Part shown: one piece after another, positions 357 to 18,214 of the stretch
How the letters are laid out: every line of letters begins with the position of its first letter
How positions within the stretch are numbered: the first letter of the stretch is position 1
Source: a virus
Direction: 5' to 3' (one strand)
IMG/VR virus record: IMGVR_UViG_3300045988_120007
Span: 1-18,214 of that record
Length of the DNA: 18,214 nucleotides
The notes under the pieces: model-generated
What the model was told of the DNA's origin: nothing
Databases searched by the model: none
What the model saw: the letters and a program-made list of their open reading frames with translations, nothing else
Program-made: the position numbers and the translations under genes

Positions 357-359
357 AGT

Positions 360-569: not shown

Positions 570-578
570 GTGGTAGTT

Positions 579-928: not shown

Positions 929-940
929 GAAGGATGGTAT

Positions 941-1135: not shown

Positions 1136-1140
1136 AAGAT

Positions 1141-1167
1141 AAAGAGTGATAATTAATATCACTCTTT
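1141..1167. terminator. Bidirectional intrinsic terminator between convergent left early operon and packaging ATPase gene
   Basis: Stem aaagagtgata (1141-1151) pairs with tatcactcttt (1157-1167), with loop attaa. The A-tract and T-tract flanks make it usable on both strands. Confidence 0.7.
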
Positions 1168-2183
1168 TAATATTTACTCAATATATAGCTTAATAAACGT
1201 TTTGTTTCTTGGTTATTGTAATAAACGCATCCATCTCGATATGATCTCACTAGTAAATTTAGCCGTTGGTCCTTACGCCATAATTTCGCAATCATCATAT
1301 TTTCACGGTTATTATTACCAATCGAATAACAATATCCATATTCCTTATTAATCTGTTGGTTGATATAAACATAACCTGTGTTCATATCTATCCATACACC
1401 ATAATAGCTATCATCATAGTATAGTGTACATAAATAATCACAAACATTTGTTTTCTTCTTAATAAAGTCGTTTGTATCATATGCAAACTTACCAGCGTTA
1501 TAATCACCGTATGTTGTTCCCGATATTAACTTATGAAATTTCGATTTTTCTTGATTTCCTTTTCTATATTCATTATGACAAATTTGTACAACGATCTGCT
1601 CCACGGATTCATTACCTTTGAATGTATTAAATTCTTTGTTCGGGTCGGGTGTGATACCAAAATAACTAAAGTATGGGTTGACGATACTCGCGTTATTGGC
1701 TAATAGGTATACATGTCCTTCTCTTTGCCTAAATATTGAGTCAATAATATTTAATAGTATTTCTACTTCATTCGGGATGTAGGCATTAAAACCAGCCTTT
1801 TCCGGTATAAATTCATCCACAATAATTGTGTCGATATCTACATAACTTGTTGATTTTAAACTCGCGAATGCTGTTAAAGATGTTGCGTAACCCATTTCAC
1901 AACCATTTATATAAAAGGTGGTAAAATTGCTACCACCTGTAATTTTAAACTCATCATCTTTAAAATTTTCAAATTGATCGTTTAGAAATGTTTTTATTTT
2001 TTTAAGGTCCGTTTTATAGCGTCTCAAGTAAAGAAATTGTTTTCCTATTTTCTTATATCGACTAATACAGTCTTTTTTAAATCCATATGTTTTACCAATC
2101 CCACGACCTCCGATGATGAAATTTAGAAATTTATTGTATGACTTTATATTAGACGGAGTATACCAATCTATTGCTTGTGTCAT
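1167..2183 (-). CDS. DNA encapsidation (packaging) ATPase, phi29 gp16-like
   Basis: Walker A is GGRGIGKT near the N-terminus and Walker B is IIVDEF. It is 338 aa and the last gene of the late block, as in phi29. Its ATG overlaps the endolysin stop (ATGA). Confidence 0.9.
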   Translation of the reverse strand: MTQAIDWYTPSNIKSYNKFLNFIIGGRGIGKTYGFKKDCISRYKKIGKQFLYLRRYKTDLKKIKTFLNDQFENFKDDEFKITGGSNFTTFYINGCEMGYATSLTAFASLKSTSYVDIDTIIVDEFIPEKAGFNAYIPNEVEILLNIIDSIFRQREGHVYLLANNASIVNPYFSYFGITPDPNKEFNTFKGNESVEQIVVQICHNEYRKGNQEKSKFHKLISGTTYGDYNAGKFAYDTNDFIKKKTNVCDYLCTLYYDDSYYGVWIDMNTGYVYINQQINKEYGYCYSIGNNNRENMMIAKLWRKDQRLNLLVRSYRDGCVYYNNQETKRLLSYILSKY

Positions 2184-2905: not shown

Positions 2906-2916
2906 ATTTCTACCTC

Positions 2917-3636: not shown

Positions 3637-3637
3637 A

Positions 3638-4579: not shown

Positions 4580-4614
4580 TTTAAATCATCTCCTTTTAAT
4601 TATATGTTAAATAA

Positions 4615-4638
4615 AAAAGGTTGAACCGTCAACCTTTT
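4615..4638 (-). terminator. Intrinsic terminator after the tail knob gene
   Basis: Stem aaaaggttga (4615-4624) pairs with tcaacctttt (4629-4638), with loop accg. On the minus strand it is followed by a T-run. It shares the GTTGA-N4-TCAAC core with the hairpins at 6861 and 9395. Confidence 0.65.
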
Positions 4639-4641
4639 CTA

Positions 4642-6828
4642 TTAATGTACTTTTCTTTCTTTATAATTTCCGTATTTATCACATTGCGTATACGAATATC
4701 TTTCACCATTATTTTGCGAATAATCACCAACATTTTTAGTGTGCCATAGTGTTATACCATTATTAAATACACGTTTGATTTTTTCCAAGTCGTTCGGGTC
4801 GATGTTTGTACCTTTGATATTACATTTTACAGTTTGAATATAGTTCCATGATACTTTAGATCGTAAATTAGGGTAGTCAACTGTATTTGTAGCATATCCG
4901 CGCATGTTCCATATTTTTTCTAGCTTCTGTTTATATTCGTCTGTAGGTCGATAAACATATAATACGAATGTATTCAAATCTAATGCGATTTGTCGCATTA
5001 AATCATTCGAACCGGTTACAATACTGTCGGCGGTAGCTTGTGCGTCGTGAATACGAGCGTTATAACTATCCATAGCGTTCTGGATATTTGTTTGATTTTG
5101 ATAGTGTGTTGTTAACTGTCTTAATTGATTTCCGATTGCGGTGGATTGGCTGTTAGCACTTGCCTGTGCATTTGCATTTGCAAGAGCGTTTGCATTTTGT
5201 AAGTTAGTCTGTTTTGTATTGATTTGGTTTTGCATTGCGGTTTGCCCAATACCTAAACCAGCTCCAACTAAACTACCTACCGCACCACCAATATTACCGG
5301 TTAGCGCGCTGGCAATACCACCACTTAACCCACCAATAGCGCTTATACTCGCATTGATCATATTCGATTTGTTTTGTAGATCATTCAAATTACTAGCTAG
5401 ATTCGCATTTCTTCCGGTCACACTTAAATTCAAGTTATTCTGTAAACTTGTTTGTGCGCTTAGCGCATTACCGGTTGCGCTTGCTATAGCTGAATTTGTT
5501 TCGTTTGACCGTCTAATGTTTGATAATCCAACGTTCATAGAGTTACGTGAGGATTGTAACATTAAAGCGGTGGTATCACTAATAATAGGTAAGCTAGTCT
5601 CATACTGAGATTCAAACGAATTCTCTAAATTAATTAAACTTGAATAAGAATCATTTGATTTTGTTACTTTATAATTTAATGGCATAATATTCATTTTTGA
5701 ACTGTTTGGTGACCCCACACAAATAAATTGAGCGTTTTTCATATCCTGCCATAATTCATTTTTAAAAGCTTTTGTTGTTCCATTATTATCGCTAATGACT
5801 AAATAACTGTAAGGATACGTGTATATTTTAGTAAATTCGCTAAATCCAATAAAAGCCGGTATATTATATACCTGTGTTTTTGGGAATGCGTTTAAATCAT
5901 TTTCTAGCATGTCATTCATGGTCTTAGCTTTATAAGTTAATATTTGATAATCTCCTTGCTGCTCACCGCTAAAGCAGTCGCGTTTAATCACAACTTGGCC
6001 ACTTTCAACAACTAAGCCCGGTATTGAATTGGTTACAATAATGGATACACATTTACCGACTAATTTTTCATTTTTTCGTAACGCGTCTAAAACGGCTGAT
6101 AATCCCGAGATTGTTACAGTTGCACCGCTTACGCTGCCAATTTTTAAAGATTTTATATCATTTCCCGTATATCTATTAAAAGGGAATATATAATAGTTAA
6201 CTTGACTTGGCGCGCCTAGCTGTGCGTTAGTGTAGCTATCTTTTCCGGACATATCACATGTCATACCTATAACGGCAAAACTAGTATTTTGGTTAGGGTC
6301 TATTAAATACTGTTTATCTGAAATTAAATCTGTACCAACTTCTATATTTTCGGGTTGAGTATTAATACATGGTCGTTGTACACCATCACCATTATCATAA
6401 TATTGCGGTCTATGCTCATAAGCTATATATGACTCCATAAAGTTACTTTCAATCTCAAAACGCCATGTTTGTATTACATCCGTTTCAAAACTAATACTTG
6501 TTGCGTTATCATTTAGATATCCTAAACTAGTAATAAAACAGTAAATCCATTTTGCTTTATTACCTGTATCTCCATTTTGATAAATTAAATAATTGTATAA
6601 ACGTAGATCATCATATAAACCGGGTACTACTACCGTACCATCTTTTCTTTGATACGTGTAATTTTCAAAAACGATGTGATCATAATTATTAATAAAAAAA
6701 TTAAATTGTTTATCGGGGGTATCGAATGCACCCCAAAACGTATTATTCATTGCGTCAATTTCTAACCCTTTTAATAGGTAAATTTTACTTTGCGGAGTAA
6801 ATTGACTGTTAACGACTCCTATACTCAT
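4642..6828 (-). CDS. Tail knob / distal tube protein (phi29 gp9 analogue) with long Gly/Ala/Asn/Gln-rich internal loop
   Basis: A large ORF directly upstream of portal and collar, matching the phi29 9-10-11 order. The track start 6837 abuts the SD. ATG 6828 lies 9 nt after AAGGAG. An internal hydrophobic Gly-rich segment resembles the pore-forming loop of gp9. Confidence 0.7.
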   Translation of the reverse strand: MSIGVVNSQFTPQSKIYLLKGLEIDAMNNTFWGAFDTPDKQFNFFINNYDHIVFENYTYQRKDGTVVVPGLYDDLRLYNYLIYQNGDTGNKAKWIYCFITSLGYLNDNATSISFETDVIQTWRFEIESNFMESYIAYEHRPQYYDNGDGVQRPCINTQPENIEVGTDLISDKQYLIDPNQNTSFAVIGMTCDMSGKDSYTNAQLGAPSQVNYYIFPFNRYTGNDIKSLKIGSVSGATVTISGLSAVLDALRKNEKLVGKCVSIIVTNSIPGLVVESGQVVIKRDCFSGEQQGDYQILTYKAKTMNDMLENDLNAFPKTQVYNIPAFIGFSEFTKIYTYPYSYLVISDNNGTTKAFKNELWQDMKNAQFICVGSPNSSKMNIMPLNYKVTKSNDSYSSLINLENSFESQYETSLPIISDTTALMLQSSRNSMNVGLSNIRRSNETNSAIASATGNALSAQTSLQNNLNLSVTGRNANLASNLNDLQNKSNMINASISAIGGLSGGIASALTGNIGGAVGSLVGAGLGIGQTAMQNQINTKQTNLQNANALANANAQASANSQSTAIGNQLRQLTTHYQNQTNIQNAMDSYNARIHDAQATADSIVTGSNDLMRQIALDLNTFVLYVYRPTDEYKQKLEKIWNMRGYATNTVDYPNLRSKVSWNYIQTVKCNIKGTNIDPNDLEKIKRVFNNGITLWHTKNVGDYSQNNGERYSYTQCDKYGNYKERKVH

Positions 6829-6860
6829 CTTAATCATCTCCTTTTATTTTATATTAGTAA

Positions 6861-6886
6861 AAAATAGTTGAATGTTCAACTATTTT
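6861..6886 (-). terminator. Intrinsic terminator after the tail lysin gene (copy 1 of a 28-nt exact repeat)
   Basis: Stem aaaatagttg (6861-6870) pairs with caactatttt (6877-6886). The 28-nt string at 6859-6886 is identical to 9394-9421. Confidence 0.65.
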
Positions 6887-8087
6887 ATTTGTCTTTTATG
6901 TAGTCATATATTTCACGTGCCTTAGTTCCTCTTTGTGGTTGGTTCGGGTCGGCTGGTCTTTCATAGTTTGCTAAAAATTCTATAGCTAGTGTGTACGGGT
7001 CGGCTGTTGACTTTGAAAAGCTCGCAAAACTTTCGGGGTAGGCTGCTGTAGCTATCCATTGCTGATTGTTTTCCATTTCCCATTGAATTCTTTCACATTC
7101 ACCTAAACCAAACTTAGAAACATCTGGGTAATACCCTTTTTCTTTTAGCCAGTCAATTATCTTTGTCCACGGCGTCCATTGAACTAAACCATAACCACGA
7201 CTAGCAACCGGTTGTGCAAAAGGTACATCACCTTCCCATCGGTTCGGGTTGACTGTACTTTCAAAATAGGAGTTACCTAATATACCAGCAACTGCATTTG
7301 CGGTCCAACCTTTCGCTTTAAAAAACTGCCAAAATGCTAACCAATTTTGTTTGGACTCATCTTCTGTAAGTGGTCGCGTATTATTAATATCACCGGGTAT
7401 AAACCACTCACTTGTTGGTGTTGGCGGTTCGGGTTTGATCTCTTCTTTTGTTTTATAAAATCCAAAATCAATTCCTAGGCCATCTAACATAAAATAATGT
7501 TTAGTGTATTTGTAAGTGGGTTCGGGTGTTGGAGGTTGTCCACCTTCAAACGTTTTCCACTCTTGCCCATATCCATTCACAATATTTGTGTCATTCACAT
7601 AAAATACATTATTCGGTAACTCTGAACCGCTTAAAGCATAACATTGATTCCCATACCTACATGTAACACCATAATAGACGAGTCCGGCATTTTGTGTAAA
7701 CGTTTGGTCGATATGACAGTGGTCACCCGTAGCCATTCCAGCCGTTCCCGTATGATAAATTAGGTCACCTTGTTTATATTGTGTTGCGGTTGGTGGGTTC
7801 GGGTCATGCGTAAAACTTACCGTAACATAGCTTAATCCGTTTGGTGTTAATACGGGATTGTCTGAACTGTAGGCGCGCGTATTACCTTCATTATCGCTAT
7901 AACATAAATGACAAGAAAAAGGGGCATACACGGGCACGCGAACCTGTCCACTAATTGCATTATCGAATGGATGCCCACAGCAATGTGAGTCGGCTGCTGG
8001 ACTTGACCATTGCGTGATGTTCATTGTTTCCATTGGAAACAAACAAACCTCATGACCATCATGTACTAGTTTTTGGCCGGGTTTCAT
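6885..8087 (-). CDS. Tail-associated peptidoglycan hydrolase: N-terminal M23 endopeptidase plus C-terminal phage tail lysozyme domain (phi29 gp13-like, domain order reversed)
   Basis: The M23 signature GDLIYHTGTAGMATGDHCHID (HxH) is in the N-terminal half. GILGNSYFESTVNP, GYGLVQWTP and FLANYERPADPNQPQRG in the C-terminal half match the gp13 lysozyme domain as I remember it. Pro-rich linkers PPTPEPT and PEPPTPT lie between them. Confidence 0.85.
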   Translation of the reverse strand: MKPGQKLVHDGHEVCLFPMETMNITQWSSPAADSHCCGHPFDNAISGQVRVPVYAPFSCHLCYSDNEGNTRAYSSDNPVLTPNGLSYVTVSFTHDPNPPTATQYKQGDLIYHTGTAGMATGDHCHIDQTFTQNAGLVYYGVTCRYGNQCYALSGSELPNNVFYVNDTNIVNGYGQEWKTFEGGQPPTPEPTYKYTKHYFMLDGLGIDFGFYKTKEEIKPEPPTPTSEWFIPGDINNTRPLTEDESKQNWLAFWQFFKAKGWTANAVAGILGNSYFESTVNPNRWEGDVPFAQPVASRGYGLVQWTPWTKIIDWLKEKGYYPDVSKFGLGECERIQWEMENNQQWIATAAYPESFASFSKSTADPYTLAIEFLANYERPADPNQPQRGTKAREIYDYIKDK

Positions 8088-8299
8088 AAATTTAATTCCT
8101 CCTCTATTATTGTTAATTCTTGTAGTTTCTGTTTACAGATATTATAGCGCTCATAATCTACATTTTTCAGTATGTGCATAGCTTGCATATAAAACTCGAT
8201 ATAAAAATAAACGCTTAGACCTTCCGGTAAATTATATGGAATATCTTCCGGTTTTTTCATCTTATATATACTTGATAATTCACATTCTTTTTTATCCAT
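8084..8299 (-). CDS. Hypothetical protein (71 aa)
   Basis: Excellent SD GTAGGAGGT upstream of ATG 8299. Its stop overlaps the tail lysin start (ATGA). No motif recognised. Confidence 0.6.
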   Translation of the reverse strand: MDKKECELSSIYKMKKPEDIPYNLPEGLSVYFYIEFYMQAMHILKNVDYERYNICKQKLQELTIIEEELNL

Positions 8300-8328
8300 A
8301 ATTAATACCTCCTACTATATAATAAAAT

Positions 8329-8352
8329 AAAACTAGCTTATGAGCTAGTTTT
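8329..8352 (-). terminator. Intrinsic terminator hairpin enclosing the stop codon of ORF 8338..8598
   Basis: Stem aaaactagct (8329-8338) pairs with agctagtttt (8343-8352), with loop tatg. T-rich on both sides. Confidence 0.55.
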
Positions 8353-8598
8353 TTCTAAAATAATTGAAATACACATGTTAACATGTAATTGCCCAGCAAC
8401 TGGTGTGTCTGTTTTAAGTTTAGCGAAATACGGTAAATATTTAATTGCTATTGTAGTATATGTAAGTTGTGGATCATCTTTTGAGGTTGTAACTGTTACA
8501 TTATCATCTAGAATAAGATAAACATAATCTATTAATTCACCTGTACTTTTGTTTTTTAAATTCGGCGTCTGTTGTGTCCTGTGCCAATTTAATAACAA
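8338..8598 (-). CDS. Probable C-terminal part of fibre paralogue 2, in the +1 frame relative to 8537..9025 (frameshift, fusion or pseudogene fragment)
   Basis: There is no ATG; the track start is TTG 8598 without a good SD. It overlaps the upstream ORF by 62 nt across an A6 run and ends inside a terminator hairpin. Confidence 0.4.
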   Translation of the reverse strand: MLLNWHRTQQTPNLKNKSTGELIDYVYLILDDNVTVTTSKDDPQLTYTTIAIKYLPYFAKLKTDTPVAGQLHVNMCISIILEKTSS

Positions 8599-9025
8599 CC
8601 GGTTTTAAGTCTTCCCATGCCTTATTAAAAGTCTCAATTGTTAAGTTTGTCACAAGCTCAATAACTTGAGGTTTTAAGATTGACCATTTATAGTCAAATT
8701 CCTCGTCTGTCCATTCTTTTGTGGCTTGTTCCAATAATGGCACTACCGTATTCCATGCCTCAATTGTTTCATTCATTGCTGTTACTAATGTATAAACGTA
8801 TCCTTGCAAATAGTTTAAACATTGGTAAACATTCATACCCGTATTGAATGCACTTACATATTGCTGAGCTAAATTCTTACCGCTTAACTTTAAAGGCTCG
8901 AACTCCGGTAAAAAATTATTGATCTCAAATTCTTCATGGAGTTCTGAACCGGAAATACTTTCGCTTTCGCTCGTAGATGTTTCACTAGAATTTAAAATAT
9001 TTTGCTTTATTTTATCAAAATCCAT
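8537..9025 (-). CDS. Fibre/appendage protein paralogue 2 (N-terminal anchor domain plus two degenerate 23-aa repeats)
   Basis: FLPEFEPLKLSGKNLAQQYVSAFNTGMNVYQCLNYLQGYV aligns with FLPKFDEVKLSGKNLAQNYVSEFNTGMNIYQCLNYLQGHI of ORF 10140..10961. ATG 9025 is preceded by GAAGGTGA; the track start is GTG 9034. Confidence 0.7.
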   Translation of the reverse strand: MDFDKIKQNILNSSETSTSESESISGSELHEEFEINNFLPEFEPLKLSGKNLAQQYVSAFNTGMNVYQCLNYLQGYVYTLVTAMNETIEAWNTVVPLLEQATKEWTDEEFDYKWSILKPQVIELVTNLTIETFNKAWEDLKPVVIKLAQDTTDAEFKKQKYR

Positions 9026-9026
9026 A

Positions 9027-9362
9027 TTATTCACCTTCTTTGTATCCGATTAGGGCTTTTAGTTTATCCGGTAGAATATCACTGTTGATTTTAGAAATGT
9101 TTTCGATGATACTAACCACCTCTGTGATAATTGCGTATGTACAAATTACCGGAACTAAATCAACCCCAAAAGGCAAAGTTAAATAAGTTTCCGCATAATT
9201 AATAGCAATACCCAATGTGTAACAAAAGATAAAACCAACCTTTTTAAAAAGTCCGTCTCTTAATTTATTAGATTTAATCTGTTCACCTTCACGTAACGCT
9301 CCAACGATACCCGTAACTAAATCCAAACCATTAAAAACCAATGCCACTAGAATAATTTTCAT
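9027..9362 (-). CDS. Holin (phage_holin_4_1-like, about 111 aa)
   Basis: Multiple hydrophobic helices are visible (IILVALVFNGLDLVTGIVGAL, VGFIFCYTLGIAINYA, LVPVICTYAIITEVVSIIENI) with a charged C-terminus. The ITEVVSIIEN motif resembles this holin family. ATG 9362 has SD AGAGGTGA. An upstream in-frame ATG at 9380 lacks an SD. Confidence 0.75.
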   Translation of the reverse strand: MKIILVALVFNGLDLVTGIVGALREGEQIKSNKLRDGLFKKVGFIFCYTLGIAINYAETYLTLPFGVDLVPVICTYAIITEVVSIIENISKINSDILPDKLKALIGYKEGE

Positions 9363-9394
9363 ATTAATCACCTCTTTCATTTTCTATAATATAA

Positions 9395-9422
9395 AAAAAT
9401 AGTTGAATGTTCAACTATTTTT
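9395..9422 (-). terminator. Intrinsic terminator after the receptor-binding candidate (copy 2 of the 28-nt repeat)
   Basis: Stem aaaaatagttg (9395-9405) pairs with caactattttt (9412-9422). 9394-9421 is identical to 6859-6886. Confidence 0.65.
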
Positions 9423-10140
9423 AATTTCCTATTTTTCCTTGTCCTAACCATTTTCCATTTTTTCGTATTCGACTTGTCCCTTGATTTTCCTTACCTACTT
9501 TATCATAACTATATTTTGCTATGTCCTTCCATGAGTTTGATTTTCTTATTTTTAAAAATCCACTGTCTTTATTCAATGATTTTAACACACCGCTTTTACG
9601 AATGCCCCACGGCCTAAAATCCGGAATAACCTGCTGAATAGAATAAATGTTTGAATGTGGAAAAGTTACATCCTCACCTTGTAGTTCAATTTTAACATGT
9701 GTTGTATCATTAGATAATTGGATAAACTTAGACCACTGGCTCGCTCTTGCTGTGCCATCCCATCCTTGTAGATAATTTAATGGCATTTGGCCCGTATGTG
9801 TAAATATCTTTTCTCTTAATAATTGAGTCCATGAGGCTTGATTGTCTGTTGACTTTGATATGATAATAAAATAATTATACGGCGTAGAAGTATCACCAAC
9901 ATAATATCCATCTGCCTCATACTGTCCAGCGTCTGTTATAGCATAACCGACTAAATCTAAAATAAACGTTACACCATAATTTCCATTGTCTGTAAAATTA
10001 ATACCACGACCATATCCGGACGCATGGGCGGTTGCTAATGGTGCTCCAAAAGGTCCGGTGTTGTCCGGTGAGCCACCTAAAACAACATTCGCATATGGTC
10101 CGGTGTTGTCATATGCACCATAAAAATATTGCCATGCCAT
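9421..10140 (-). CDS. Putative receptor-binding / fibre-tip protein (239 aa)
   Basis: Translationally coupled to the upstream fibre gene (TAATG at 10138-10142). The N-terminus is Gly/Tyr/Asn-rich with a DNTGPY/DNTGPF duplication. The basic C-terminus has three IRK(S/N)xxW-like motifs. Function is inferred from context only. Confidence 0.45.
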   Translation of the reverse strand: MAWQYFYGAYDNTGPYANVVLGGSPDNTGPFGAPLATAHASGYGRGINFTDNGNYGVTFILDLVGYAITDAGQYEADGYYVGDTSTPYNYFIIISKSTDNQASWTQLLREKIFTHTGQMPLNYLQGWDGTARASQWSKFIQLSNDTTHVKIELQGEDVTFPHSNIYSIQQVIPDFRPWGIRKSGVLKSLNKDSGFLKIRKSNSWKDIAKYSYDKVGKENQGTSRIRKNGKWLGQGKIGN

Positions 10141-10961
10141 TATACACCACCAGCCAAATCGTTCTCGGTACTTCCGCTATTTGTACGGATATAAGAACCG
10201 CCGTCAACACTTCCACCAAAGATGTTAATATTACCGGTTGCGATGTTTCTACCGTCTGTCATATGACCATCGAAAATAGTTGCACCCGTTTGTGTCCAAG
10301 CGCCACTGTTTTTCAAGTTGGTTAACAAGATTGATAAATCATCATACATTTTACCAATTTTAGAATCTTGATTATCAATATATTGATTGATAGTATTATT
10401 CACATATTGCGTTAACTCCGGTTTTAATTCTTCCCATGACTGATTAAATTGATTAATTGTTGTCTGTTTTGTTAATTCAATCACTTGAGGCTTTAATTCT
10501 TCCCATGATTCATTGAATTGATTAATTGTTGTCTGTTTTGTTAATTCAATCACTTGAGGCTTTAACTCTTCCCATTTTTCATTAAATTGATTAATTGTTG
10601 TCTGTTTTGTTAATTCAATAACTTGAGGTTTTAACTCTGCCCAATGTTTATCAAATTCACTTTTTGACAATTCAATGCAATATTTAATCATATCCTCAAT
10701 ATTTTTATTCCATTTTTTAACAACATCGTTCACAGCTTTTACAAGCCATCCGATATGACCCTGTAAATAATTTAAGCATTGGTAAATATTCATACCCGTG
10801 TTAAACTCACTCACATAGTTTTGAGCAAGGTTTTTACCGCTTAACTTTACCTCATCAAACTTAGGCAAAAAATTATCAATATCTATTTTGATCTCTTGGT
10901 TTTGCTCAAACTGTTCTTTAATTGTTTGGCTTGCTGATTTCTTTTTAATTTTTCTTAACAT
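10140..10961 (-). CDS. Fibre/appendage protein paralogue 1 with three tandem 23-aa repeats (head-fibre or tail-appendage stalk)
   Basis: It follows the capsid gene, the position of phi29 gp8.5. The N-terminal domain is shared with 8537..9025. The unit ELKPQVIELTKQTTINQFNExWE occurs three times plus partial copies. The C-terminus is Gly-rich. Confidence 0.7.
   Translation of the reverse strand: MLRKIKKKSASQTIKEQFEQNQEIKIDIDNFLPKFDEVKLSGKNLAQNYVSEFNTGMNIYQCLNYLQGHIGWLVKAVNDVVKKWNKNIEDMIKYCIELSKSEFDKHWAELKPQVIELTKQTTINQFNEKWEELKPQVIELTKQTTINQFNESWEELKPQVIELTKQTTINQFNQSWEELKPELTQYVNNTINQYIDNQDSKIGKMYDDLSILLTNLKNSGAWTQTGATIFDGHMTDGRNIATGNINIFGGSVDGGSYIRTNSGSTENDLAGGV
10423..10629 (-). repeat. Three tandem 69-bp in-frame repeats inside the fibre gene
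   Basis: The units 10423-10491, 10492-10560 and 10561-10629 are near-identical and are flanked by degenerate partial units. Confidence 0.95.
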
Positions 10962-11012
10962 GATCTCACCACCTTCAAATACATACTAATACAAAACAAA
11001 TAAAAATAAAAG

Positions 11013-11040
11013 AAAAAGAGTTAAATTAATAACTCTTTTT
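11013..11040 (-). terminator. Intrinsic terminator after the major capsid gene
   Basis: Stem aaaaagagtt (11013-11022) pairs with aactcttttt (11031-11040). On the minus strand it is followed by a T-rich tract, within the 130-nt gap after the capsid stop. Confidence 0.65.
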
Positions 11041-11091
11041 CCTAAGTTGCAATTCACCTAAATAATAGAAAGGAGGGGTGTCATGTCCTAC

Positions 11092-12456
11092 TCATGCCGC
11101 TTGCCCATAAACATTATATACAACCTTAATGTCACAAGTTACGTTAGAAAATGTATCTTTGATTGTTACAGTTGCTAGGCCTTCACCGTCGATACCCTCT
11201 AAACCTTCAATCTTAACGTGTCTCAAATCGCTTTCGATTATAGCTCTAACTTTATCCTCATCACTAGATGTAACAGTCAATCTATACTCAGCATTTAAAC
11301 CGCTTGTTTGTACTGTAAACGGTACGGTAATCGTTTCACCGTCACAAACTCTTACAACTTGTGGATTTGAGTAAATAGCTGTAACTTCTTCCTCGACATT
11401 TCCGGAAACGAACGCAATTGCGTTTGCGAATCGGCTCGTTGCAATTCCTTCCCAATGGTGAAGGAAATAATTCCAATATAGACCTTTAGCATTATAAGCA
11501 ACACCAACGCTATACTTCTGATCAAATACACGGTAAATTTCTGAATCACATACAATAGCTTCAATTGTTCCTTGTGTTGTGCTTGGTAAAGTTGGCAATA
11601 CTAATACATGCGTTTTGAATTGCGCAAATTCTAGCTGGAATGTTTGAGCTAACCAATCAATATTTAAGTAGCTATTTGTTTTACCATTTAGAATAACGTA
11701 AATATCGTCGTATTCGTTCTGTTTGGTAACTGCCATAGCGTTATACTCGTTAGTTGGTTCAGTTAAATAAGATACGTATTCTGTAATTTTACGCGCTAAT
11801 TCTTTAGCTGTATCCGTATCTGTAACAGCGTTCGTATTTACAATTTTCATGTGTCCATTTTCATAGTGAGTAACTAAAGCGGATTTCATATAGTTATAAT
11901 CATCTTTATTGTCACCATTATACATAGAATCAACAATACGCGCGATCAAACTGTTTACACCATCCCAAGTCACAAAATATTTACGTAAATCATCGTCTGT
12001 AATTGTTGCTGGGTAGTATGACTTTCTGTTTACTACGTAAAAAGCTGTTTTAATATCCGGTAAACATCTTCTAAATAAAGTGTACTCCGCGTCCGCTTGA
12101 TTGTATTCGTGCTCTTTTGCGCACTCAACGAAATATTCTTCCATAGTATAGCCCAAAGGCATATTTTCCATTTTAAATGGTGCTAATTTGTTTGTTAAAA
12201 TATTCCTATGCGCAATTACTTTACCAATACGTGTTGCTAAATTCATAAACTCAACACCTAAAGTATCCGGATATTCTAGTAAACCGCTCATGAACTCTAA
12301 AGAACTCACTTCGTTAGGGTCACCAATCGTACTCCTAAAATTGCTAGAACTCATTGCATACATAGCACTAGCGACTTCTTGCCCTGTTGGTTCATGGTCC
12401 ATCCCTAAATCATTCTGTAACGTTTTAGTTACGTCTTTTCCTGTTGTTTTTGACAT
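11092..12456 (-). CDS. Major capsid protein, phi29 gp8-like, with C-terminal Ig-like (BIG2-type) domain
   Basis: KGLYWNYFLHHWEGIATSRFANAIAFVSGNVEE matches the [31 protein letters not shown] block of phi29 gp8 as I remember it. It is 454 aa with a C-terminal beta-rich tail of about 90 aa. SD AGAGGTGA. Confidence 0.92.
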   Translation of the reverse strand: MSKTTGKDVTKTLQNDLGMDHEPTGQEVASAMYAMSSSNFRSTIGDPNEVSSLEFMSGLLEYPDTLGVEFMNLATRIGKVIAHRNILTNKLAPFKMENMPLGYTMEEYFVECAKEHEYNQADAEYTLFRRCLPDIKTAFYVVNRKSYYPATITDDDLRKYFVTWDGVNSLIARIVDSMYNGDNKDDYNYMKSALVTHYENGHMKIVNTNAVTDTDTAKELARKITEYVSYLTEPTNEYNAMAVTKQNEYDDIYVILNGKTNSYLNIDWLAQTFQLEFAQFKTHVLVLPTLPSTTQGTIEAIVCDSEIYRVFDQKYSVGVAYNAKGLYWNYFLHHWEGIATSRFANAIAFVSGNVEEEVTAIYSNPQVVRVCDGETITVPFTVQTSGLNAEYRLTVTSSDEDKVRAIIESDLRHVKIEGLEGIDGEGLATVTIKDTFSNVTCDIKVVYNVYGQAA

Positions 12457-12473
12457 CTAAATCACCTCTTTCA

Positions 12474-12749
12474 TTAAATACCTAATTTTCTTAAATCCAT
12501 TGGCGCCTCATGTTTTGGCTTTTCTCCGCCCGATTTTTCAACACCAATCTGCATAAATAGTTTAGAATTCGCTTCTGTTAAAGAAGTATTCTTTTCAACT
12601 AATTTTGTGTTTTCGGCTTTCAAATTGTCTAATTCTGTATAAGTTTTTTCGACTTCCGCGCGCATATCATTCAGCATAGTTGAACGTTCCGCTTGATCTT
12701 CAACCGTTAACACTTCCGTAAACTTGTTTCTAAGTTCATCACGTTCCAT
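12474..12749 (-). CDS. Scaffolding protein (phi29 gp7 analogue)
   Basis: 91 aa, acidic and predicted helical/coiled-coil (EVEKTYTELDNLKAENTKLVEKNTSLTEANSKL). It lies immediately upstream of the capsid gene and is the first gene after the late promoter. Confidence 0.7.
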   Translation of the reverse strand: MERDELRNKFTEVLTVEDQAERSTMLNDMRAEVEKTYTELDNLKAENTKLVEKNTSLTEANSKLFMQIGVEKSGGEKPKHEAPMDLRKLGI

Positions 12750-12773
12750 TTTTACACATCCCTTCTATTTATT

Positions 12774-12802
12774 AATATATGCTAATAATATTTTAAAGTC
12801 AA
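12774..12802 (-). promoter_or_regulatory. Late (morphogenesis) promoter
   Basis: On the minus strand TTGACT (12802-12797), 17-nt spacer, TATATT (12779-12774). It sits directly after the RNA-gene terminator and about 25 nt upstream of the scaffold ATG. Confidence 0.6.
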
Positions 12803-12958
12803 TAAAAAATAAAACCCTCTTTTATGAGGGTTTCATAAATATAGATTGTAAAGTTTAAAGTGTTACCAGCTAGATTACTATTCCTAATTATGTTGTTAGC
12901 ACGTTTCACCGCGAGTAAACCTAACATACATGTCTGATTTCCGTTCTTTATTCCTTAC
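12803..12958 (-). ncRNA. Candidate ~155-nt structured non-coding RNA (prohead/packaging RNA analogue)
   Basis: It has its own promoter (12965-12993) and its own terminator (stem 12812-12819/12826-12833 plus U-run), with no ORF. A hand fold gives a paired 5'/3' helix, a long hairpin and a short hairpin meeting at a three-way junction, followed by a 3' terminator domain. Confidence 0.45.
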
Positions 12959-12964
12959 GGTCAT

Positions 12965-12993
12965 ATATTACCATGCTATTCACTCTTTGACAA
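12965..12993 (-). promoter_or_regulatory. Promoter of the candidate ncRNA (extended -10)
   Basis: On the minus strand TTGTCA (12993-12988), 17-nt spacer, TGg TAATAT (12973-12965). The -35 is embedded in the last codons of ORF 12976..13158. Confidence 0.6.
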
Positions 12994-13158
12994 ATCTTCT
13001 TTAATTTTATCTTTAACATATTTACTAAACTTTTTCTTTTTCAATAAATCTTCAATGTATCCAACAACTTCAACTTCATCTTTATTTACACATATGCAAT
13101 ATTTATTTACATGATCTCGATACCATTGGTTTCTATGCTCTTTCGATTTTTCGCTCAT
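12976..13158 (-). CDS. Small basic protein, possible ribbon-helix-helix (CopG/Arc-like) DNA-binding regulator (about 60 aa)
   Basis: The track start is ATG 13185, overlapping the upstream ORF by 53 nt. ATG 13158 (MSEKSKEH...) follows AAGGTG by 9 nt. The pattern of a basic N-terminus, a short beta-like stretch (KYCICVNKD) and helices resembles RHH proteins. Weak call. Confidence 0.5.
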   Translation of the reverse strand: MSEKSKEHRNQWYRDHVNKYCICVNKDEVEVVGYIEDLLKKKKFSKYVKDKIKEDLSKSE

Positions 13159-13585
13159 CATCCTCATCACCTTCTTTTTCTTCATACCATGCCAACGGTT
13201 TACCTAATATATATGTGTGAACAAATTCATTCGTTTCATGGTTCACAATACTCCAGCCGTTTTCTAAATATTGGTTTAACATATCAATATCTTTTCGATA
13301 GGCTGAATAATCATAATCTTTTATAGATCGGACAACTACAACTTTATTTTTAAGTGGAGGACTTCCGAACATGATTTCATTAAATTCTTTTAGAGTCTTA
13401 TCACACTTTTTAAATATTGCGTTATCACGATGATAAACTTCATAACTTAAACTATCAAGCTCATTATTCAAATATTTATAATTATCAATTAATGACTCAT
13501 ATTTACAAAACATAACCAAACTAAAAATTACTAATACAATAATACAAATAATACAAATTAAAACCATTAAATTTATAAAATCCAT
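13133..13585 (-). CDS. Membrane-anchored early protein (N-terminal TM helix, coiled-coil, acidic tail; 150 aa)
   Basis: The N-terminal FINLMVLICIICIIVLVIFSLVMF is a clear TM segment. SD AAAGGAG is 7 nt upstream of ATG 13585. It lies downstream of the polymerase in the replication block. Confidence 0.7.
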   Translation of the reverse strand: MDFINLMVLICIICIIVLVIFSLVMFCKYESLIDNYKYLNNELDSLSYEVYHRDNAIFKKCDKTLKEFNEIMFGSPPLKNKVVVVRSIKDYDYSAYRKDIDMLNQYLENGWSIVNHETNEFVHTYILGKPLAWYEEKEGDEDDERKIERA

Positions 13586-13722
13586 TTTTCTACTCCTTTA
13601 TAATCCAAATAATCATTAGCCCCATCCCTATAATATATACAGTAAATAGAAATGTGACGCTTAAACAGCAAAATGCCATAAATAAATAATACAATATACT
13701 TGTTAAAACACTTATCACTTTA

Positions 13723-15549
13723 TCACCTACTCTTTATGCTGAATTGTCTATCGACTAATACAATACCACCGGGAACATGTGTTTTCTTTAAACAATCATT
13801 AATTACATTTCCAACTCTAAAGTTATCATATGTTACATTCTGTTTCGCCTTCTCTGTCATACCGGCGCATTTCACGTTCAAGTAATAACAGACACCACCA
13901 CGAATATAATACAAATTGTCTTTACAGTCATTCTCATCAATATACTCTTGCTGGTGCTCTACATATTCTTTATAACTGATTTCAATTTCTTCCACGTAAC
14001 TTTTAGCACCAATGAAATAAGATCTATTAAATATGGATTCTAAACCCCAATAGCCTAATTCTTTATCATCAATAATATCTTTAATTGCGTCCGGAACTTG
14101 TGTACCTACTAAATGTATAGAGTCCGTGTCAATATAAGCAACTCGATGGATACCTACCTTTTGTGCGGTAGTAATTGTATACTTACGTGCATAGGCTGTT
14201 ACAAATTCTCCGTAGGGCAAATAAATAGGGTCTCTGAATTGTTCGTCAATAACCTCTTTCACTTCTCCATCTTCAAAAGTTGTAAACATAGGATCATGAA
14301 GTCTTAATATACCATCATCCTCATCAATAAAAGGTATTTTAGGTGTAACATTTGGGTTCGTTGCGAATTTTCCATAAACAGAGTTCATTTTTCTTTTAGC
14401 GATAAATCGCTGTGCACCTTTGGAATTTTTCTTAACTTCCATCTGCTCATCAATAAACTGCCTTGCAATGCCTACACAACCTCTAAATTTATACCCATTA
14501 TGAAACTCCACATCATAAATATCATATTGTTCATTAAATAACTCCCAATCCACACTCGTGACAGTCATTCGTACAACGTCACCGTTTGAACTATCCACAT
14601 ATTTTTTACTTCCAAAAAATCGACTAAACTTGTCTAATGAAATACAAGGAATATGATCTTTTTTAATATCAAACGCAAAACTAATCACGCCTACCCACAA
14701 CGGATACTCATTATCATGCTGGTATTCCCCTTCAAAATAAATAGGTGTCTCGTACGGCAAATTTTCGTAGTACATACGTGAGGGAAAAAGTGAGTTTACA
14801 TCAAATACAATACCTTGTGATATTTCCTGTTCTTTTAGTTCCGGATTAGCCCAAACAAAGCCGCCAGCGTAAGCCGGTCTTAAATCTCTGTCAACATTCA
14901 TTTCTAATATTGGGAATATCTTTTCAAACGCCATAGGTAAGGTTTTCTTAAACGATTCAAAACTACAGCTTGTTGCCGTCATTTTGTTAAATCCTAACTT
15001 AAAACATTCGTTAAGAGCCATTCCCTCAATATCAATGTCGTTAAACAAATAATCTATTTCGTGTGGTGTTAACTCGTGTCCTTTTTCTCTTTTAGCCGTA
15101 TAATCTAACTTTAATTTACGAATTGGTAAATTAAAGTCATGTGCGATCTTTTTAATACTAAATGGAATTAATTTAAACGAGTCCCATATAGTTGTTTTCG
15201 TTGATCTATATATGGAATATTTCCACCAGATTTCAATTGAATACCATAAACCCGTATTAGAGATAATTGTTTTAAAACATCCGGTTTTAGGCTTTTCCGA
15301 ATATTCATAGCCATTATTTAAAAGCCAACTTACAATAAACTCACCATCAAACGCAAGATTATGGAAATACAATTTTCGCGTTTTTTCTTTACACCATTCA
15401 ATAAACCCGTCTATACTATTTCCATATTCTTTTATGGTCGAATCTTCAACAAAACTCGCACCCCATGCCCACACTCTACAGTCTAAAGGGTCGGTTGTAG
15501 TTTCAAAATCGCACGCCCAAATTTCTTTCGGACCTTTTTTCTTTGCCAT
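13723..15549 (-). CDS. Protein-primed family-B DNA polymerase (phi29 gp2-like)
   Basis: Motifs read directly: ExoI CDFETTT, ExoII HNLAFDGEFI, ExoIII YLFNDIDI, motif A FDVNSLFPS, motif B KMNSVYGKF, motif C YIDTDSIH, KxY AKSYVEE. 608 aa. Confidence 0.96.
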   Translation of the reverse strand: MAKKKGPKEIWACDFETTTDPLDCRVWAWGASFVEDSTIKEYGNSIDGFIEWCKEKTRKLYFHNLAFDGEFIVSWLLNNGYEYSEKPKTGCFKTIISNTGLWYSIEIWWKYSIYRSTKTTIWDSFKLIPFSIKKIAHDFNLPIRKLKLDYTAKREKGHELTPHEIDYLFNDIDIEGMALNECFKLGFNKMTATSCSFESFKKTLPMAFEKIFPILEMNVDRDLRPAYAGGFVWANPELKEQEISQGIVFDVNSLFPSRMYYENLPYETPIYFEGEYQHDNEYPLWVGVISFAFDIKKDHIPCISLDKFSRFFGSKKYVDSSNGDVVRMTVTSVDWELFNEQYDIYDVEFHNGYKFRGCVGIARQFIDEQMEVKKNSKGAQRFIAKRKMNSVYGKFATNPNVTPKIPFIDEDDGILRLHDPMFTTFEDGEVKEVIDEQFRDPIYLPYGEFVTAYARKYTITTAQKVGIHRVAYIDTDSIHLVGTQVPDAIKDIIDDKELGYWGLESIFNRSYFIGAKSYVEEIEISYKEYVEHQQEYIDENDCKDNLYYIRGGVCYYLNVKCAGMTEKAKQNVTYDNFRVGNVINDCLKKTHVPGGIVLVDRQFSIKSR

Positions 15550-15567
15550 ACTACAACCCCCTTTACA

Positions 15568-16410
15568 TTATTTATACTTAACAACACCATTTTTAACATA
15601 AGCGCGTCCGGTAAATACGGCTAAACTTTCTCTTACATCTGCCATATCAGATTTTAACGCTCGACTAAGCTGCTCATTAACAAACATTTGGTTTTCTGTA
15701 TACTCACGGCTTAAATCTAAATATTTAAACGTGTTCAATGCTTTTCTTTCTTGATAAAACCATTTTATAAAATCTTTATCTGATAATGATTTTATATCTT
15801 TTAAAATTTCTTTCGCTTCTTCTTCTGTAATTATATTGCCTCTAACATGTTTCCCTAAAGCTGTTTCATAATTCAATCTTAAATTCGTAATTTTTTTATT
15901 TTTCTTTTTAGTATTTTCCTCTAAACTTTCAATTCGATTAGCTAATTGTTTAGGATATCTATAACTCTGAATATTAACATGGTGGACGGGTTCAAAAAAT
16001 CCGCCTCTGTCATCTTTTAAAACAGATAAAGCGTTTCTAACACTAACACCCGTTGCAATACCGCCTTTTGTTTCTTTTAATTTCGTTAGACCGACACTTT
16101 TAGCTAGTTTTTTTCTTTGCTTATTCTGTTTATCCACTAGCTTATTAGCCTTTTCGATGTCATTTCGATTGAAAACAACACCGTACCTATTTTCAATGTA
16201 ACGATTCTCTTTATTAAATTTATCGATATCTCTCAAATACTTATTAAATTCTTTACGATCATTAAAATCTTTTATAGAACGAATGTCATTAAATACAACG
16301 TCTTGCCCTAGGTTTTGCGCCCTCGTTGCGGTTCTCTTGGCGCTTGCTATTGCATTTCTAAGACGCTTAACGTCTTTCGTACTTTTTCTCATTTTAGCCA
16401 ATTTAAACAC
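15568..16410 (-). CDS. Terminal protein (phi29 gp3 positional analogue)
   Basis: About 275-280 aa, very basic, immediately upstream of the polymerase as in phi29. The start is ambiguous: the track uses GTG 16410, TTG 16401 lies 8 nt after GGGGG, and ATG 16392 is also in frame. No sequence motif was recognised, so the call rests on context. Confidence 0.6.
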   Translation of the reverse strand: MFKLAKMRKSTKDVKRLRNAIASAKRTATRAQNLGQDVVFNDIRSIKDFNDRKEFNKYLRDIDKFNKENRYIENRYGVVFNRNDIEKANKLVDKQNKQRKKLAKSVGLTKLKETKGGIATGVSVRNALSVLKDDRGGFFEPVHHVNIQSYRYPKQLANRIESLEENTKKKNKKITNLRLNYETALGKHVRGNIITEEEAKEILKDIKSLSDKDFIKWFYQERKALNTFKYLDLSREYTENQMFVNEQLSRALKSDMADVRESLAVFTGRAYVKNGVVKYK

Positions 16411-16431
16411 CCCCTTTTAAGTCAAAAATAA

Positions 16432-16454
16432 AAGGGTGTTTGGCTAACACCCTT
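16432..16454 (-). terminator. Intrinsic terminator after the SSB-like gene
   Basis: Stem aagggtgtt (16432-16440) pairs with aacaccctt (16446-16454), with loop tggct. On the minus strand it is followed by TTATTTTT. Confidence 0.65.
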
Positions 16455-16465
16455 AATTAACTAGG

Positions 16466-16876
16466 CTATTTTACAGCCATTGACAAATATTTATTTGAGC
16501 TTGCGTTTGATTTTTTCTGAATAATCACAACGTGAATTGGTTGTTTTGTCCAATCATAGTTAAACACTTGTTTAAGCTGCTTTAATGATTGCAAGAAAGG
16601 TTTACTATTTGTAGCGTATGCCTTACCTTCTTTATCAATTACAGTAATTAACTTGCTACAGATAATCTCACCTGTTTTCTCATTTTCCTTTTCTACATCT
16701 TGAACGATAAAGCCTGTTAAAAATAAATCTTTTCCAACTTGATCGCTCAATCCCTCAGCGTTGTTAACAGCGTTGAACAAGTTGACACGCTGTTCATAAC
16801 TCATGTCATCCGTTACTACTAAACCATTTAAACCACTATTTTCCATTGTCATTACTTCATTTCCTAAATTTTCCAT
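16466..16876 (-). CDS. Putative single-stranded DNA-binding protein (phi29 gp5 positional analogue)
   Basis: The track start ATG 16906 has no SD. ATG 16876 follows AAAGGAG. It is about 136 aa and lies upstream of terminal protein and polymerase. The strand-rich pattern resembles small phage OB-fold SSBs. Tentative. Confidence 0.45.
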   Translation of the reverse strand: MENLGNEVMTMENSGLNGLVVTDDMSYEQRVNLFNAVNNAEGLSDQVGKDLFLTGFIVQDVEKENEKTGEIICSKLITVIDKEGKAYATNSKPFLQSLKQLKQVFNYDWTKQPIHVVIIQKKSNASSNKYLSMAVK

Positions 16877-16999
16877 ATTAATTTTTTCTCCTTTTAATTT
16901 TAACATTGCTTTTTCGATTTGTTTATTTTACGTTGTCAATCCTGTTTAAGCATAAAACCCTTTTACAACTTGCACGCTTTTTAGTGAAGTCATAACACT

Positions 17000-17221
17000 T
17001 TAATATCTTACATGACACACCTCCATTAATTCATCATATTTCATATTTATTAGAACAAACCACATAACCAACATTACAATCAACAATACAATAAAATTAA
17101 CATAACGACTAGATATTTTATAATATTTAAAGTTGCCTTTACAATGGTTATAAACTTGATACAGAGATAATAACACCCAAATAACCCAACTTGCAAGCAT
17201 TAAATTATTGTAAATACTCAT
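17000..17221 (-). CDS. Small early membrane protein (two predicted TM helices)
   Basis: The hydrophobic segments LMLASWVIWVLLSLY and FIVLLIVMLVMWFVLI are clear. The track start is GTG 17227 and ATG 17221 is more likely. It overlaps the upstream gene end. Confidence 0.6.
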   Translation of the reverse strand: MSIYNNLMLASWVIWVLLSLYQVYNHCKGNFKYYKISSRYVNFIVLLIVMLVMWFVLINMKYDELMEVCHVRY

Positions 17222-17507
17222 ACCCACGTCTCTCGTTCTCTTTAATCATATCCTCAAGTGATACAGCGCCCTGTAGAACCTTACGTTTAAATAACGTCAT
17301 AGTACTATAGCGAAACGAATATGTAGCTATAACACTTTTCGAGTTCAGCTTACGAATATCCATCCGAATTAAATGCCTACGCTGGTATACTAGATGAAAG
17401 CCAAGTTTATAATCACATAAGTAAGTTTCAATGATATCCACAATTTGATTCACATTATCCATAGTTAATTCACTTGGATTATGTGAATGTTTGTAAATTC
17501 TACTCAT
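17205..17507 (-). CDS. Early protein, unknown function (100 aa)
   Basis: ATG 17507 overlaps the upstream stop region. It is tightly packed in the right early operon. No motif recognised. Confidence 0.6.
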   Translation of the reverse strand: MSRIYKHSHNPSELTMDNVNQIVDIIETYLCDYKLGFHLVYQRRHLIRMDIRKLNSKSVIATYSFRYSTMTLFKRKVLQGAVSLEDMIKENERRGYEYLQ

Positions 17508-17778
17508 AACAATACCATCCCAAATCCTCAGCTAATTCATATAATACATCAACATAATCACAAAATGGAGGAATATAAACAACAGGTTGCCACCAGTCAT
17601 AGTGCCAATAAACACGCACTTTAATATTATGTTTTTCCATGTCGTCCAACATAGGTTTGCTTATTTGTCCATAAATGAAATTATATACAACTTTTTTCAA
17701 TTTATTTTTAGAAATATATCGCTCATTTGTAATACCATCATAATCAATACAAATGTTTCTAATACTATAATGTTTCAT
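17500..17778 (-). CDS. Early protein, unknown function (92 aa, Trp/Tyr-rich)
   Basis: SD AAGAGGTA lies 6 nt upstream of ATG 17778. No motif recognised. Confidence 0.6.
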   Translation of the reverse strand: MKHYSIRNICIDYDGITNERYISKNKLKKVVYNFIYGQISKPMLDDMEKHNIKVRVYWHYDWWQPVVYIPPFCDYVDVLYELAEDLGWYCYE

Positions 17779-17783
17779 AATTG

Positions 17784-18101
17784 CTACCTCTTTACAATAA
17801 AATCTGAAAGACTAATATAATCTTTATTTTCTTCGAAACAAATATGTAATAACATATCGCATAATTTGTTATACGTTCCTTTTTTAGAACCACCATAAAC
17901 AACGAAGTTACTCATATGACTACACCAAAAATAAACAGCCGTACCATGATCTACAACTTCGACTCTATTAATTTTTTGTTGCCATCCACTTCTCTTTGCT
18001 TTAAAGTTAGCATTGTTAAATCTTTCTTTAACCATGTTAGCCTTCCACAATAAATTCTTTTTTGTACATGTTCCATAAAATCTTTGTTCAATATGTGTCA
18101 T
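17784..18101 (-). CDS. Early protein, unknown function (105 aa, basic)
   Basis: Its ATG and first two codons lie inside the right ITR and use the ITR-borne SD. No motif recognised. Confidence 0.7.
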   Translation of the reverse strand: MTHIEQRFYGTCTKKNLLWKANMVKERFNNANFKAKRSGWQQKINRVEVVDHGTAVYFWCSHMSNFVVYGGSKKGTYNKLCDMLLHICFEENKDYISLSDFIVKR

Positions 18102-18129
18102 CTTGTTTCCCTCTTTTCTTTACACTCAT

Positions 18130-18157
18130 AGTATAGCATACATATTCTAGAATACAA
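18130..18157 (-). promoter_or_regulatory. Right early promoter inside the ITR (identical copy)
   Basis: Mirror copy of 58-85. On the minus strand TTGTAT is 18157-18152 and TATACT is 18135-18130. It drives the ORF starting at 18101. Confidence 0.6.
18143..18154. promoter_or_regulatory. Second copy of the 12-bp palindrome (right ITR)
   Basis: 18143-18154 reads tattctagaata, in the same position relative to the right early promoter. Confidence 0.35.
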
Positions 18158-18214
18158 CCCCTTTTATAATTTCACATAATCCACTACGGACCCAAGCGTG
18201 TCATTGTTTCACGT

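Follow-up and report, generated by a model that had tools for sequence, protein, structure and literature searches.

A candidate packaging RNA gene at the boundary of early and late genes in an uncultured phi29-like phage

The IMG/VR virus record IMGVR_UViG_3300045988_120007 (positions 1 to 18,214, the whole stretch of DNA analyzed here and called the window in the following) contains a short intergenic interval, 12803-12958(-), which carries a candidate gene for a packaging or prohead RNA (pRNA). The window has 18,214 bp. Positions 1-119 and 18096-18214 are exact 119-bp inverted terminal repeats. The exact repeats at both ends mark the window as a linear, protein-primed phage genome which is complete. 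Almost every gene is carried on the minus strand. The interval separates the early gene block from the scaffold gene, and the candidate RNA is encoded on the strand which also carries the early and late genes. The stop of the last early open reading frame (ORF; 12976-13185(-)) at 12976 and the start of the scaffold gene (12474-12749(-)) at 12749 were both verified; they bound the 226-nt gap described in an earlier reading of this DNA, the original prediction. There is one copy of the RNA gene per genome. It is located at 12.8-13.0 kb of 18.2 kb, i.e., centrally as had been stated, and not at the left end, a location which is typical for phi29 and B103 yet not strictly defining.

The RNA is numbered on the minus strand from n1 = G12958; a 156-nt RNA then extends from 12958 to 12803. 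All control elements which had been proposed were retrieved. Upstream is a near-consensus extended -10 promoter, TTGTCA-17-TAATAT with an upstream TG, at 12993-12965(-). The -35-like hexamer TTGTCA (12988-12993(-)) overlaps the end of the upstream ORF and is moderately conserved; relatives have TTGGCA, TTGGAA or TTG-AA. In the extended -10 region TGgTAATAT (12965-12973(-)) the TG is near-invariant, and T-A-.-T-A-T is invariant in 80 sequences. At the other end an intrinsic terminator at 12836-12809(-) is followed by a U run. Hairpin (n123-150; 11 pairs, 6-nt loop) and U tract, a T run in the DNA, form a 3' domain at 12803-12836(-). It is the only terminator-like site in 12400-13400, where 0.3 are expected, and two pairs of the stem show compensatory changes across relatives. 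Immediately after it begins the late promoter, TTGACT-17-TATATT at 12802-12774(-), with 10 of 12 matches. It adjoins the RNA gene without belonging to it and serves the genes for scaffold and capsid; all 80 sequences have TTGAC and TATATT unchanged. There is no excess of promoter-like sites in general (6 versus an expected 4.9), and the RNA promoter is assigned because of its conservation pattern, not because of a motif match. The layout suggests an independent RNA of about 150-156 nt, produced from its own early promoter with a +1 at or next to G12958.

The conservation of the locus was examined in relatives. A capsid-anchored scan of IMG/VR yielded 80 related loci with 82-95% capsid identity. 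The homologous RNA interval is present in 79 of these, i.e., in all related loci which include the region. Identities to the window, measured by segment across 77 relatives, differ profoundly. The first 111 nt of the RNA (domain I) are 92.4% identical, the terminator 93% and the extended -10 region 83%. For the third codon positions of the capsid gene the value is 60.2%, for the 6 nt from the -10 region to the proposed +1 only 23.4%. Conservation begins abruptly at G12958, as expected of a transcription start followed by a constrained RNA. The clade is abundant. About 120 IMG/VR contigs belong to it, and one capsid cluster has 1151 member sequences. The capsid-protein search reached only relatives which are at least 84% identical; distant clades were not found by it. 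Among the INPHARED phages none has nucleotide similarity to the region, its flanks or the window, and the closest cultured phages share about 30-34% capsid protein identity. Judged by its sequence, the window phage is a member of an uncultured phi29-like clade.

The minimum free energy (MFE) fold of 12803-12958(-) has -34 kcal/mol and a z of -3.0; none of 200 shuffles was as stable. It reproduces most of the helices which had been drawn previously, i.e., 1-6/106-111, 9-13/99-103, 21-25/90-94, 28-38/60-69 with A32 bulged, and 72-76/85-89. The three-way junction with paired 5' and 3' ends emerges from the MFE fold, and for the helices termed A, C and E it is in agreement with covariation and with RNAalifold, which recovers these three independently. 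Domain I (n1-111; 12848-12958(-)) is delineated by MFE fold, covariation, model matches and conservation. In the A helix the 5' strand (n1-6, 9-13 and 21-25; 12934-12958(-)) has its partners in n106-111, 99-103 and 90-94. It is followed by the C/E arm (12890-12931(-)), which comprises the C helix (n28-31/66-69 and n33-38/60-65, separated by the bulged A32), the CE bulge and the E stem-loop. For the apex of this arm the original prediction, a pairing 39-44/50-56 with a loop UCGCG, has to be replaced; MFE, RNAalifold and covariation all give a different apex. The corrected version consists of a 7-nt CE-type bulge GUUUACU (n39-45; 12914-12920(-)) on the 5' strand, unopposed on the 3' side, and of an E stem-loop (12900-12913(-)) with the stem CGCG/CGUG (n46-49/56-59) and the loop GUGAAA (n50-55). 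The D hairpin (n72-89; 12870-12887(-)) has a stem core UAG/CUA (n73-75/86-88) and a loop with AGUAA at n80-84 (12875-12879). In the MFE fold a single-stranded linker (12837-12847(-); 84% conserved) connects domain I with the 3' hairpin.

For counting covariation the structure was written on 62 distinct sequences. In these, 99.1% of the cells are paired and 15 pairs have compensatory two-sided changes. No shuffle out of 500 scored as high, and when partners were slid by 1-3 columns pairing dropped to 27-40%. Pairing reaches 95-100% in the helices A, C and E, which contain 12 of the compensatory pairs. The three segments of the A helix are paired to 99.7-100%, with five compensatory pairs. In n33-38/60-65 four of six pairs covary, in 11-30 distinct sequences. 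The variants of the C helix are illustrative: GUUAG/CUAAC, AUCAG/CUGAU, ACCGG/CCGGU and AUUGG/CCAAU. In the E stem two of four pairs covary, CG being changed to UA in 5 and 9 sequences. The alignment of the intergenic region from related phages, which had been proposed as a check, demonstrates that the suggested A and C helices are kept by compensatory changes.

These data bear on two trivial explanations. The first one is a chance fold in an AT-rich spacer without any functional RNA. It could point to the fact that promoter-like motifs are no commoner than in shuffles. It is already refuted by conservation and covariation, i.e., by an identity of 92% compared to 60% at neutral sites and by the 15 covarying pairs, and the z of -3.0 as well as model E-values of 2e-5 and 5e-11 against known pRNAs (see below) speak against it, too; its probability is negligible. 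The second one is a small protein. The claim that the gap has no ORF is correct for ORFs of at least 60 aa. It does not hold for shorter ones, since a frame of 42 codons (12803-12928(-)) starts at the AUG at n32 and spans RNA and terminator. This frame is open in the window and has equal length in 55 of 80 relatives. The start codon is present in 35 of the 80 sequences only and is ATA in 43; the start of an alternative 22-codon frame is not conserved either. Substitutions are pair-preserving doublets instead of changes at synonymous sites, and neither a protein family nor a ribosome binding site is evident. With the start lost in 45 of 80 sequences and pair-preserving substitutions, the coding interpretation was rejected, and we give it hardly any credit. 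Automatic annotators are likely to call the 42-codon frame a gene.

A self-complementary CGCG in an apical loop had been proposed to mediate loop-loop contacts between RNA molecules. This candidate was rejected. CGCG pairs with CGUG, and two of these four pairs covary; being a covarying stem it cannot be a kissing element. The likely kissing elements, by their sequence, are UUACU in the bulge (n41-45) and AGUAA in the D loop (n80-84). The respective loop-loop helix is 97.4% paired, and three of its five pairs are compensatory in the related loci L020 and L023, which have UUUUC/GAAAA. Among 59 distinct IMG/VR RNAs there are only these two bulge/D-loop haplotypes. Three metagenome contigs also carry the L020-type UUUUC/GAAAA. 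Searches for other kissing variants, i.e., targeted scans of IMG/VR and one metagenome scan, all of them for exact patterns, returned the L020 type only; 37 of the 40 matches in the metagenome scan were chance pattern matches. The CE bulge of phi29 ends in AACC, and these four bases pair with GGUU in the D loop of a neighboring molecule. Matched pairs exist in other related RNAs, too: UAUC/GAUA in B103, GCUA/UAGC in Hungatella phage CH17P1 and GCCA/UGGC in Clostridium phage phiCPV4. The kissing evidence derives its weight from the fact that matches recur at homologous positions, in combination with the compensatory variant. By analogy to phi29, bulge and D loop may pair between molecules and so give rise to a ring.

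A comparison with the phi29 pRNA (RF00044; 174 nt, domain I about 120 nt) shows the same order and kind of elements. In both RNAs the ends are paired as an A helix. The junction after A has 1 nt in phi29 and 2 nt in the window RNA. The C helix of phi29 has 5 bp, a 1-nt bulge and 4 bp, that of the window RNA 4 bp, a 1-nt bulge and 6 bp. Next comes a bulge confined to the 5' strand, of 9 nt in phi29 and 7 nt in the window RNA. The E stem has 4 bp and the E loop 6 nt in both. The junction ahead of D is 3 nt in phi29 and 2-3 nt in the window RNA, and in both the D hairpin leads straight back into the A helix. The positions of CE bulge and D loop are near-equal, 45-48/82-85 in phi29 and 41-45/80-84 in the window RNA. 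Both RNAs possess a separate 3' domain, and both genomes encode gp10 and gp16. There are differences. The A helix of the window RNA is shorter and more interrupted, with 16 pairs instead of about 22. The D stem is weaker, and the D loop has 8 nt compared to 5 in phi29. The kissing helix is AU-rich, unlike that of phi29; the RNA gene is central, and the 3' domain is itself the terminator. An 8-mer, UGUAUGUU, is common to both RNAs. Its register in the two structures differs and it is variable in the clade, so it was not used as evidence.

Covariance models were built from either side of the comparison. Model R1 was derived from the window clade only, model R3 from the pRNAs of phi29, B103 and GA-1 only, and R1 was run unfiltered over four Bacillus phage genomes. 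R1 gives the window RNA 137 bits. In GA-1 it matches the annotated pRNA over the full length (1765-1880(-), 34.8 bits, E about 2e-5). In NC_002649 the misc_RNA is given as 1719..1879, so the match starts 1 nt from the annotated 5' end. In B103 the best match of the genome is the left-end pRNA locus with 16.5 bits. In phi29 the pRNA is the best match within the first 1.2 kb, but scores only 6.9 bits. Conversely, R3 matches the window at 12846-12958(-), end to end, with 48.0 bits and an E of 4.7e-11; the next-best match in the window has 11.9 bits. The divergent L020-type RNA scores 29.4 bits with R3. Background scores are at most 17 bits for R1 and, Bacillus phage PumA1 (19.5 bits) aside, at most 13 bits for R3. 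The sequence content of R3 is independent of the window clade. Hence, as far as sequence and structure can tell, the window RNA is a homologue of the pRNAs of phi29, B103 and GA-1.

Among known pRNAs, that of GA-1 is the best cross-match of R1, and the resemblance extends to details. GA-1 shares the layout of the C helix (4 bp, 1-nt bulge, 6 bp), the bulge on the 5' strand and the 4-bp E stem. The E loop consists of 6 nt and is A-rich, GUAAAA in GA-1 and GUGAAA in the window RNA. The ends of the GA-1 pRNA, AUAAGG...UUUUAUAA, resemble those of the window RNA. Like the window RNA it has its own promoter and is positioned off the extreme genome end, with an operon to its left. The connector protein has no N-terminal RKR in either phage. 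On the other hand, only 44% of the aligned positions are identical, and the bulge and D loop of GA-1 have a Watson-Crick match of just 2 bp compared to 5 bp in the window RNA. The GA-1 pRNA is encoded in the left early region, the window RNA at the early/late boundary. The host of GA-1 is Bacillus, whereas the window phage comes from an uncultured clade.

The protein partners of a pRNA are encoded as well. As had been claimed, the window codes for relatives of the gp10 connector (3638-4579(-); PF05352, 1.9e-56) and of the gp16 packaging ATPase (1167-2183; PF05894, 1.1e-72). The window shows the setting of the pRNA family in full, with connector and packaging ATPase of the gp10 and gp16 types and a linear genome which is protein-primed. 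Topology, covariation and reciprocal model matches uphold the proposal of a packaging RNA in this phage, with the function deduced from sequence. We conclude that 12803-12958(-) is very probably a functional packaging RNA gene. The RNA would be transcribed from its own extended -10 promoter, start at or next to G12958 and end at the intrinsic terminator. According to MFE fold and covariation the first 111 nt form a three-way junction with paired ends, a C/E arm and a short D arm. The further steps are drawn from the analogy to phi29. Copies would be joined head-to-tail, the UUACU bulge of one pairing with the AGUAA D loop of the next. At the portal vertex of the prohead the resulting RNA ring would dock on the connector of the gp10 type. 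Its A helices would protrude and serve as a scaffold for the ring of the gp16-type ATPase, and this ATPase ring would pump the genome, capped by terminal protein, into the head. The hairpin of the 3' terminator would be the counterpart of the dispensable domain II of phi29.

The location of the gene raises two other possibilities. A structured RNA which lies right at the junction of early block and late promoter, with a terminator which abuts the late -35 hexamer, might act in trans as a small regulatory RNA, or be a structured insulator transcript. It would have kept pRNA ancestry and shape, have lost its packaging role and, e.g., time the late switch. Yet the features conserved are those of pRNA assembly, i.e., paired ends, CE bulge, E loop, D loop and a covarying loop-loop match. 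The conservation is accounted for without complementarity to a target, and the partners gp16 and gp10 are encoded in the same genome. We regard such a regulatory role as improbable. Even less probable is a cis-acting leader or attenuator, in which structure and terminator would determine how much transcription, early or from the RNA's own promoter, reads through into the genes for scaffold and capsid. The late operon is directly preceded by promoter, structured region and terminator, which would fit. So would several weak leader-type matches in Rfam, though these are driven by the terminator hairpin only. No other Rfam family, including rseX, rimP leader and Phe leader, reaches its gathering threshold; the sub-threshold matches have 14-24 bits compared to thresholds of 37-88 bits, with E-values of 0.3-5.7. 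Downstream of the terminator the late genes have a strong promoter of their own, which is invariant, and because of it they need no read-through. A conserved alternative antiterminator pairing was not found. Reciprocal matches with pRNA models are not expected of a leader, and the homologue in CH17P1 precedes a different gene, that of the ATPase.

Several observations nevertheless weigh against a packaging RNA. The phage is uncultured and known only from metagenomes, and a packaging role is deduced from sequence. The scan with the pRNA family model of Rfam, RF00044 (Phage_pRNA), was carried out and matches nothing in the window, neither at the gathering threshold nor at E<=10 in 12700-13050. 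The model is functional, as phi29 scores 145 bits. This miss does not amount to an exclusion, because at the gathering threshold of 100 bits RF00044 also misses the established pRNAs of GA-1 and B103. RF00044 defines the phi29 subgroup and not the whole pRNA family. Next, the three-sequence alignment of R3 was fitted to a further model, R2, in which window-clade sequences are included; consequently, its structure annotation is not fully independent. The D stem originates from the MFE fold only, its core is invariant, and RNAalifold does not contain it. With an invariant core, covariation neither supports nor contradicts the D stem, a predicted element. The kissing helix is AU-rich. Loop shuffling gives a P of about 0.04-0.14 for a single loop-loop match by chance, which is modest, and the occurrence of only two kissing haplotypes in the clade amounts to one evolutionary event. 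Finally, the connector's N-terminus reads MDLLNDTSS and is devoid of the basic MARKR of phi29 and B103, which is reported to contact pRNA. The connector of GA-1 (MLEDGFSYK) is also without MARKR; in CH17P1 and phiCPV4 the N-termini are basic.

According to two reviews (PMC5066667; PMC11476376), the known pRNAs are confined to phi29 and Bacillus phages related to it. In the literature searched there was no report of a pRNA in Clostridium or metagenomic phages. The models point to additional candidates in other phages. In Hungatella phage CH17P1 (OP172758.1, about 13684-13795(+); L089 2121-2232(-)) R1 gives 27.4 bits with an E of about 1e-3. The match is positioned in an unannotated 235-nt gap between the genes for the DNA polymerase and the packaging ATPase, and this RNA has a GUGAAA E loop as well. 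CH17P1 is available in culture, which makes its RNA accessible to experiment. In Clostridium phage phiCPV4 (NC_018083; L176 16181-16291(-)) the match of R2 is marginal (18.6 bits, E 0.12). It lies between a SpoVG-like gene and a scaffold-like gene upstream of the capsid gene, a synteny as in the window. The region is GC-rich (56%), its own MFE fold is a pRNA-like three-way junction, and it is 90-100% conserved in 17 Clostridium perfringens phage records. In phiZP2 and CPS2 there are compensatory changes in the C and A helices of the phiCPV4-type RNA; in CPS2 the candidate region is annotated as hypothetical protein CPS2_5. Judged by these sequences, relatives of pRNA are likely to exist in CH17P1 and in the C. 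perfringens phages. The Bacillus phage PumA1 (NC_049971; L086 84-203(-)) has a left-end match to R3 with 19.5 bits and an E of 0.018. Its E stem-loop, CACGGUGAAACGUG, is almost identical to that of the window RNA, CGCGGUGAAACGUG, and the E-motif GGUGAAAC of the window RNA recurs in the PumA1 and CH17P1 matches. The left-end RNA of PumA1 is, on its sequence, a probable unannotated pRNA.

The gene is located at the early/late boundary in the window clade, as is its likely relative in the C. perfringens phages; the likely relative in CH17P1 is in the interval between polymerase and ATPase genes. We hold it to be likely that pRNA is an ancestral component of phi29-type motors, widespread in phi29-like phages of Clostridia and not a peculiarity of the Bacillus Salasmaviridae. 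As part of this proposal each lineage would possess its own matched pair of CE bulge and D loop. If true, the only known RNA-containing DNA-packaging motor has a wider range of hosts and sequences, and its RNA would be old rather than a novelty of Bacillus phages. Dozens of natural variants would become available for studies of structure and covariation and for RNA nanotechnology, including new AU-rich kissing pairs of 5 bp. The Rfam pRNA model is too narrow to annotate the family, and a genome annotation based on RF00044 will miss most of it. Calls of hypothetical proteins over such intergenic regions, CPS2_5 being an example, deserve re-examination.

Significant model matches are absent from Lactococcus phage asccphi28, Staphylococcus phage 44AHJD, Enterococcus phage CUB-FM and Clostridium phage CS229P2. 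For asccphi28 this agrees with its published description, in which evidence for a pRNA is lacking; the apparent absence was used to select simpler model motors (PMC7823558). In the human-faecal contig MT836152 a marginal partial match (E 0.17) was all that was obtained, and it was discarded. The Streptococcus phage Cp-1 has the gene order of the window, early genes followed by scaffold and capsid genes on one strand. A pRNA was proposed for it (Martin et al., 1996, as cited in PMC6266182), never confirmed, and could not be found with a published covariance model (PMC6266182); in the record NC_001825 no pRNA is annotated. The best match of R1 and R2 in Cp-1 is 1057-1135(+) (L081), with non-significant 16.7 and 14.6 bits, respectively. 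It is situated between PE3, the mapped early start (1005/1007), and orf3, within 145 nt which are not translated. As the score is weak and the fold not convincingly pRNA-like, it was rejected as a pRNA. This weak match may or may not correspond to the pRNA proposed in 1996.

The remaining genes of the window conform to a phi29-like organization. The early block comprises a gene for a single-stranded DNA-binding protein and a type-B DNA polymerase (13723-15549), both identified by PHROGs matches, as well as a putative terminal protein, a label which is based on position as family searches gave no match. The late block contains the scaffold gene mentioned above and the gene for the major capsid protein (11092-12456(-)), again both with PHROGs matches, tail genes, and the connector and ATPase genes described before. 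A module of about 60 aa (NFLP.F...KLSGKNLAQ.YVS.FNTGMN.YQCLNYLQG) is found in similar form at the N-terminus of the two ORFs 10140-10961(-) and 8537-9034(-). The ORF of 273 aa (10140-10961) also has three tandem repeats of about 21 aa (WEELKPQVIELTKQTTINQFN). According to their sequences these two ORFs may be paralogous fibre or decoration proteins.

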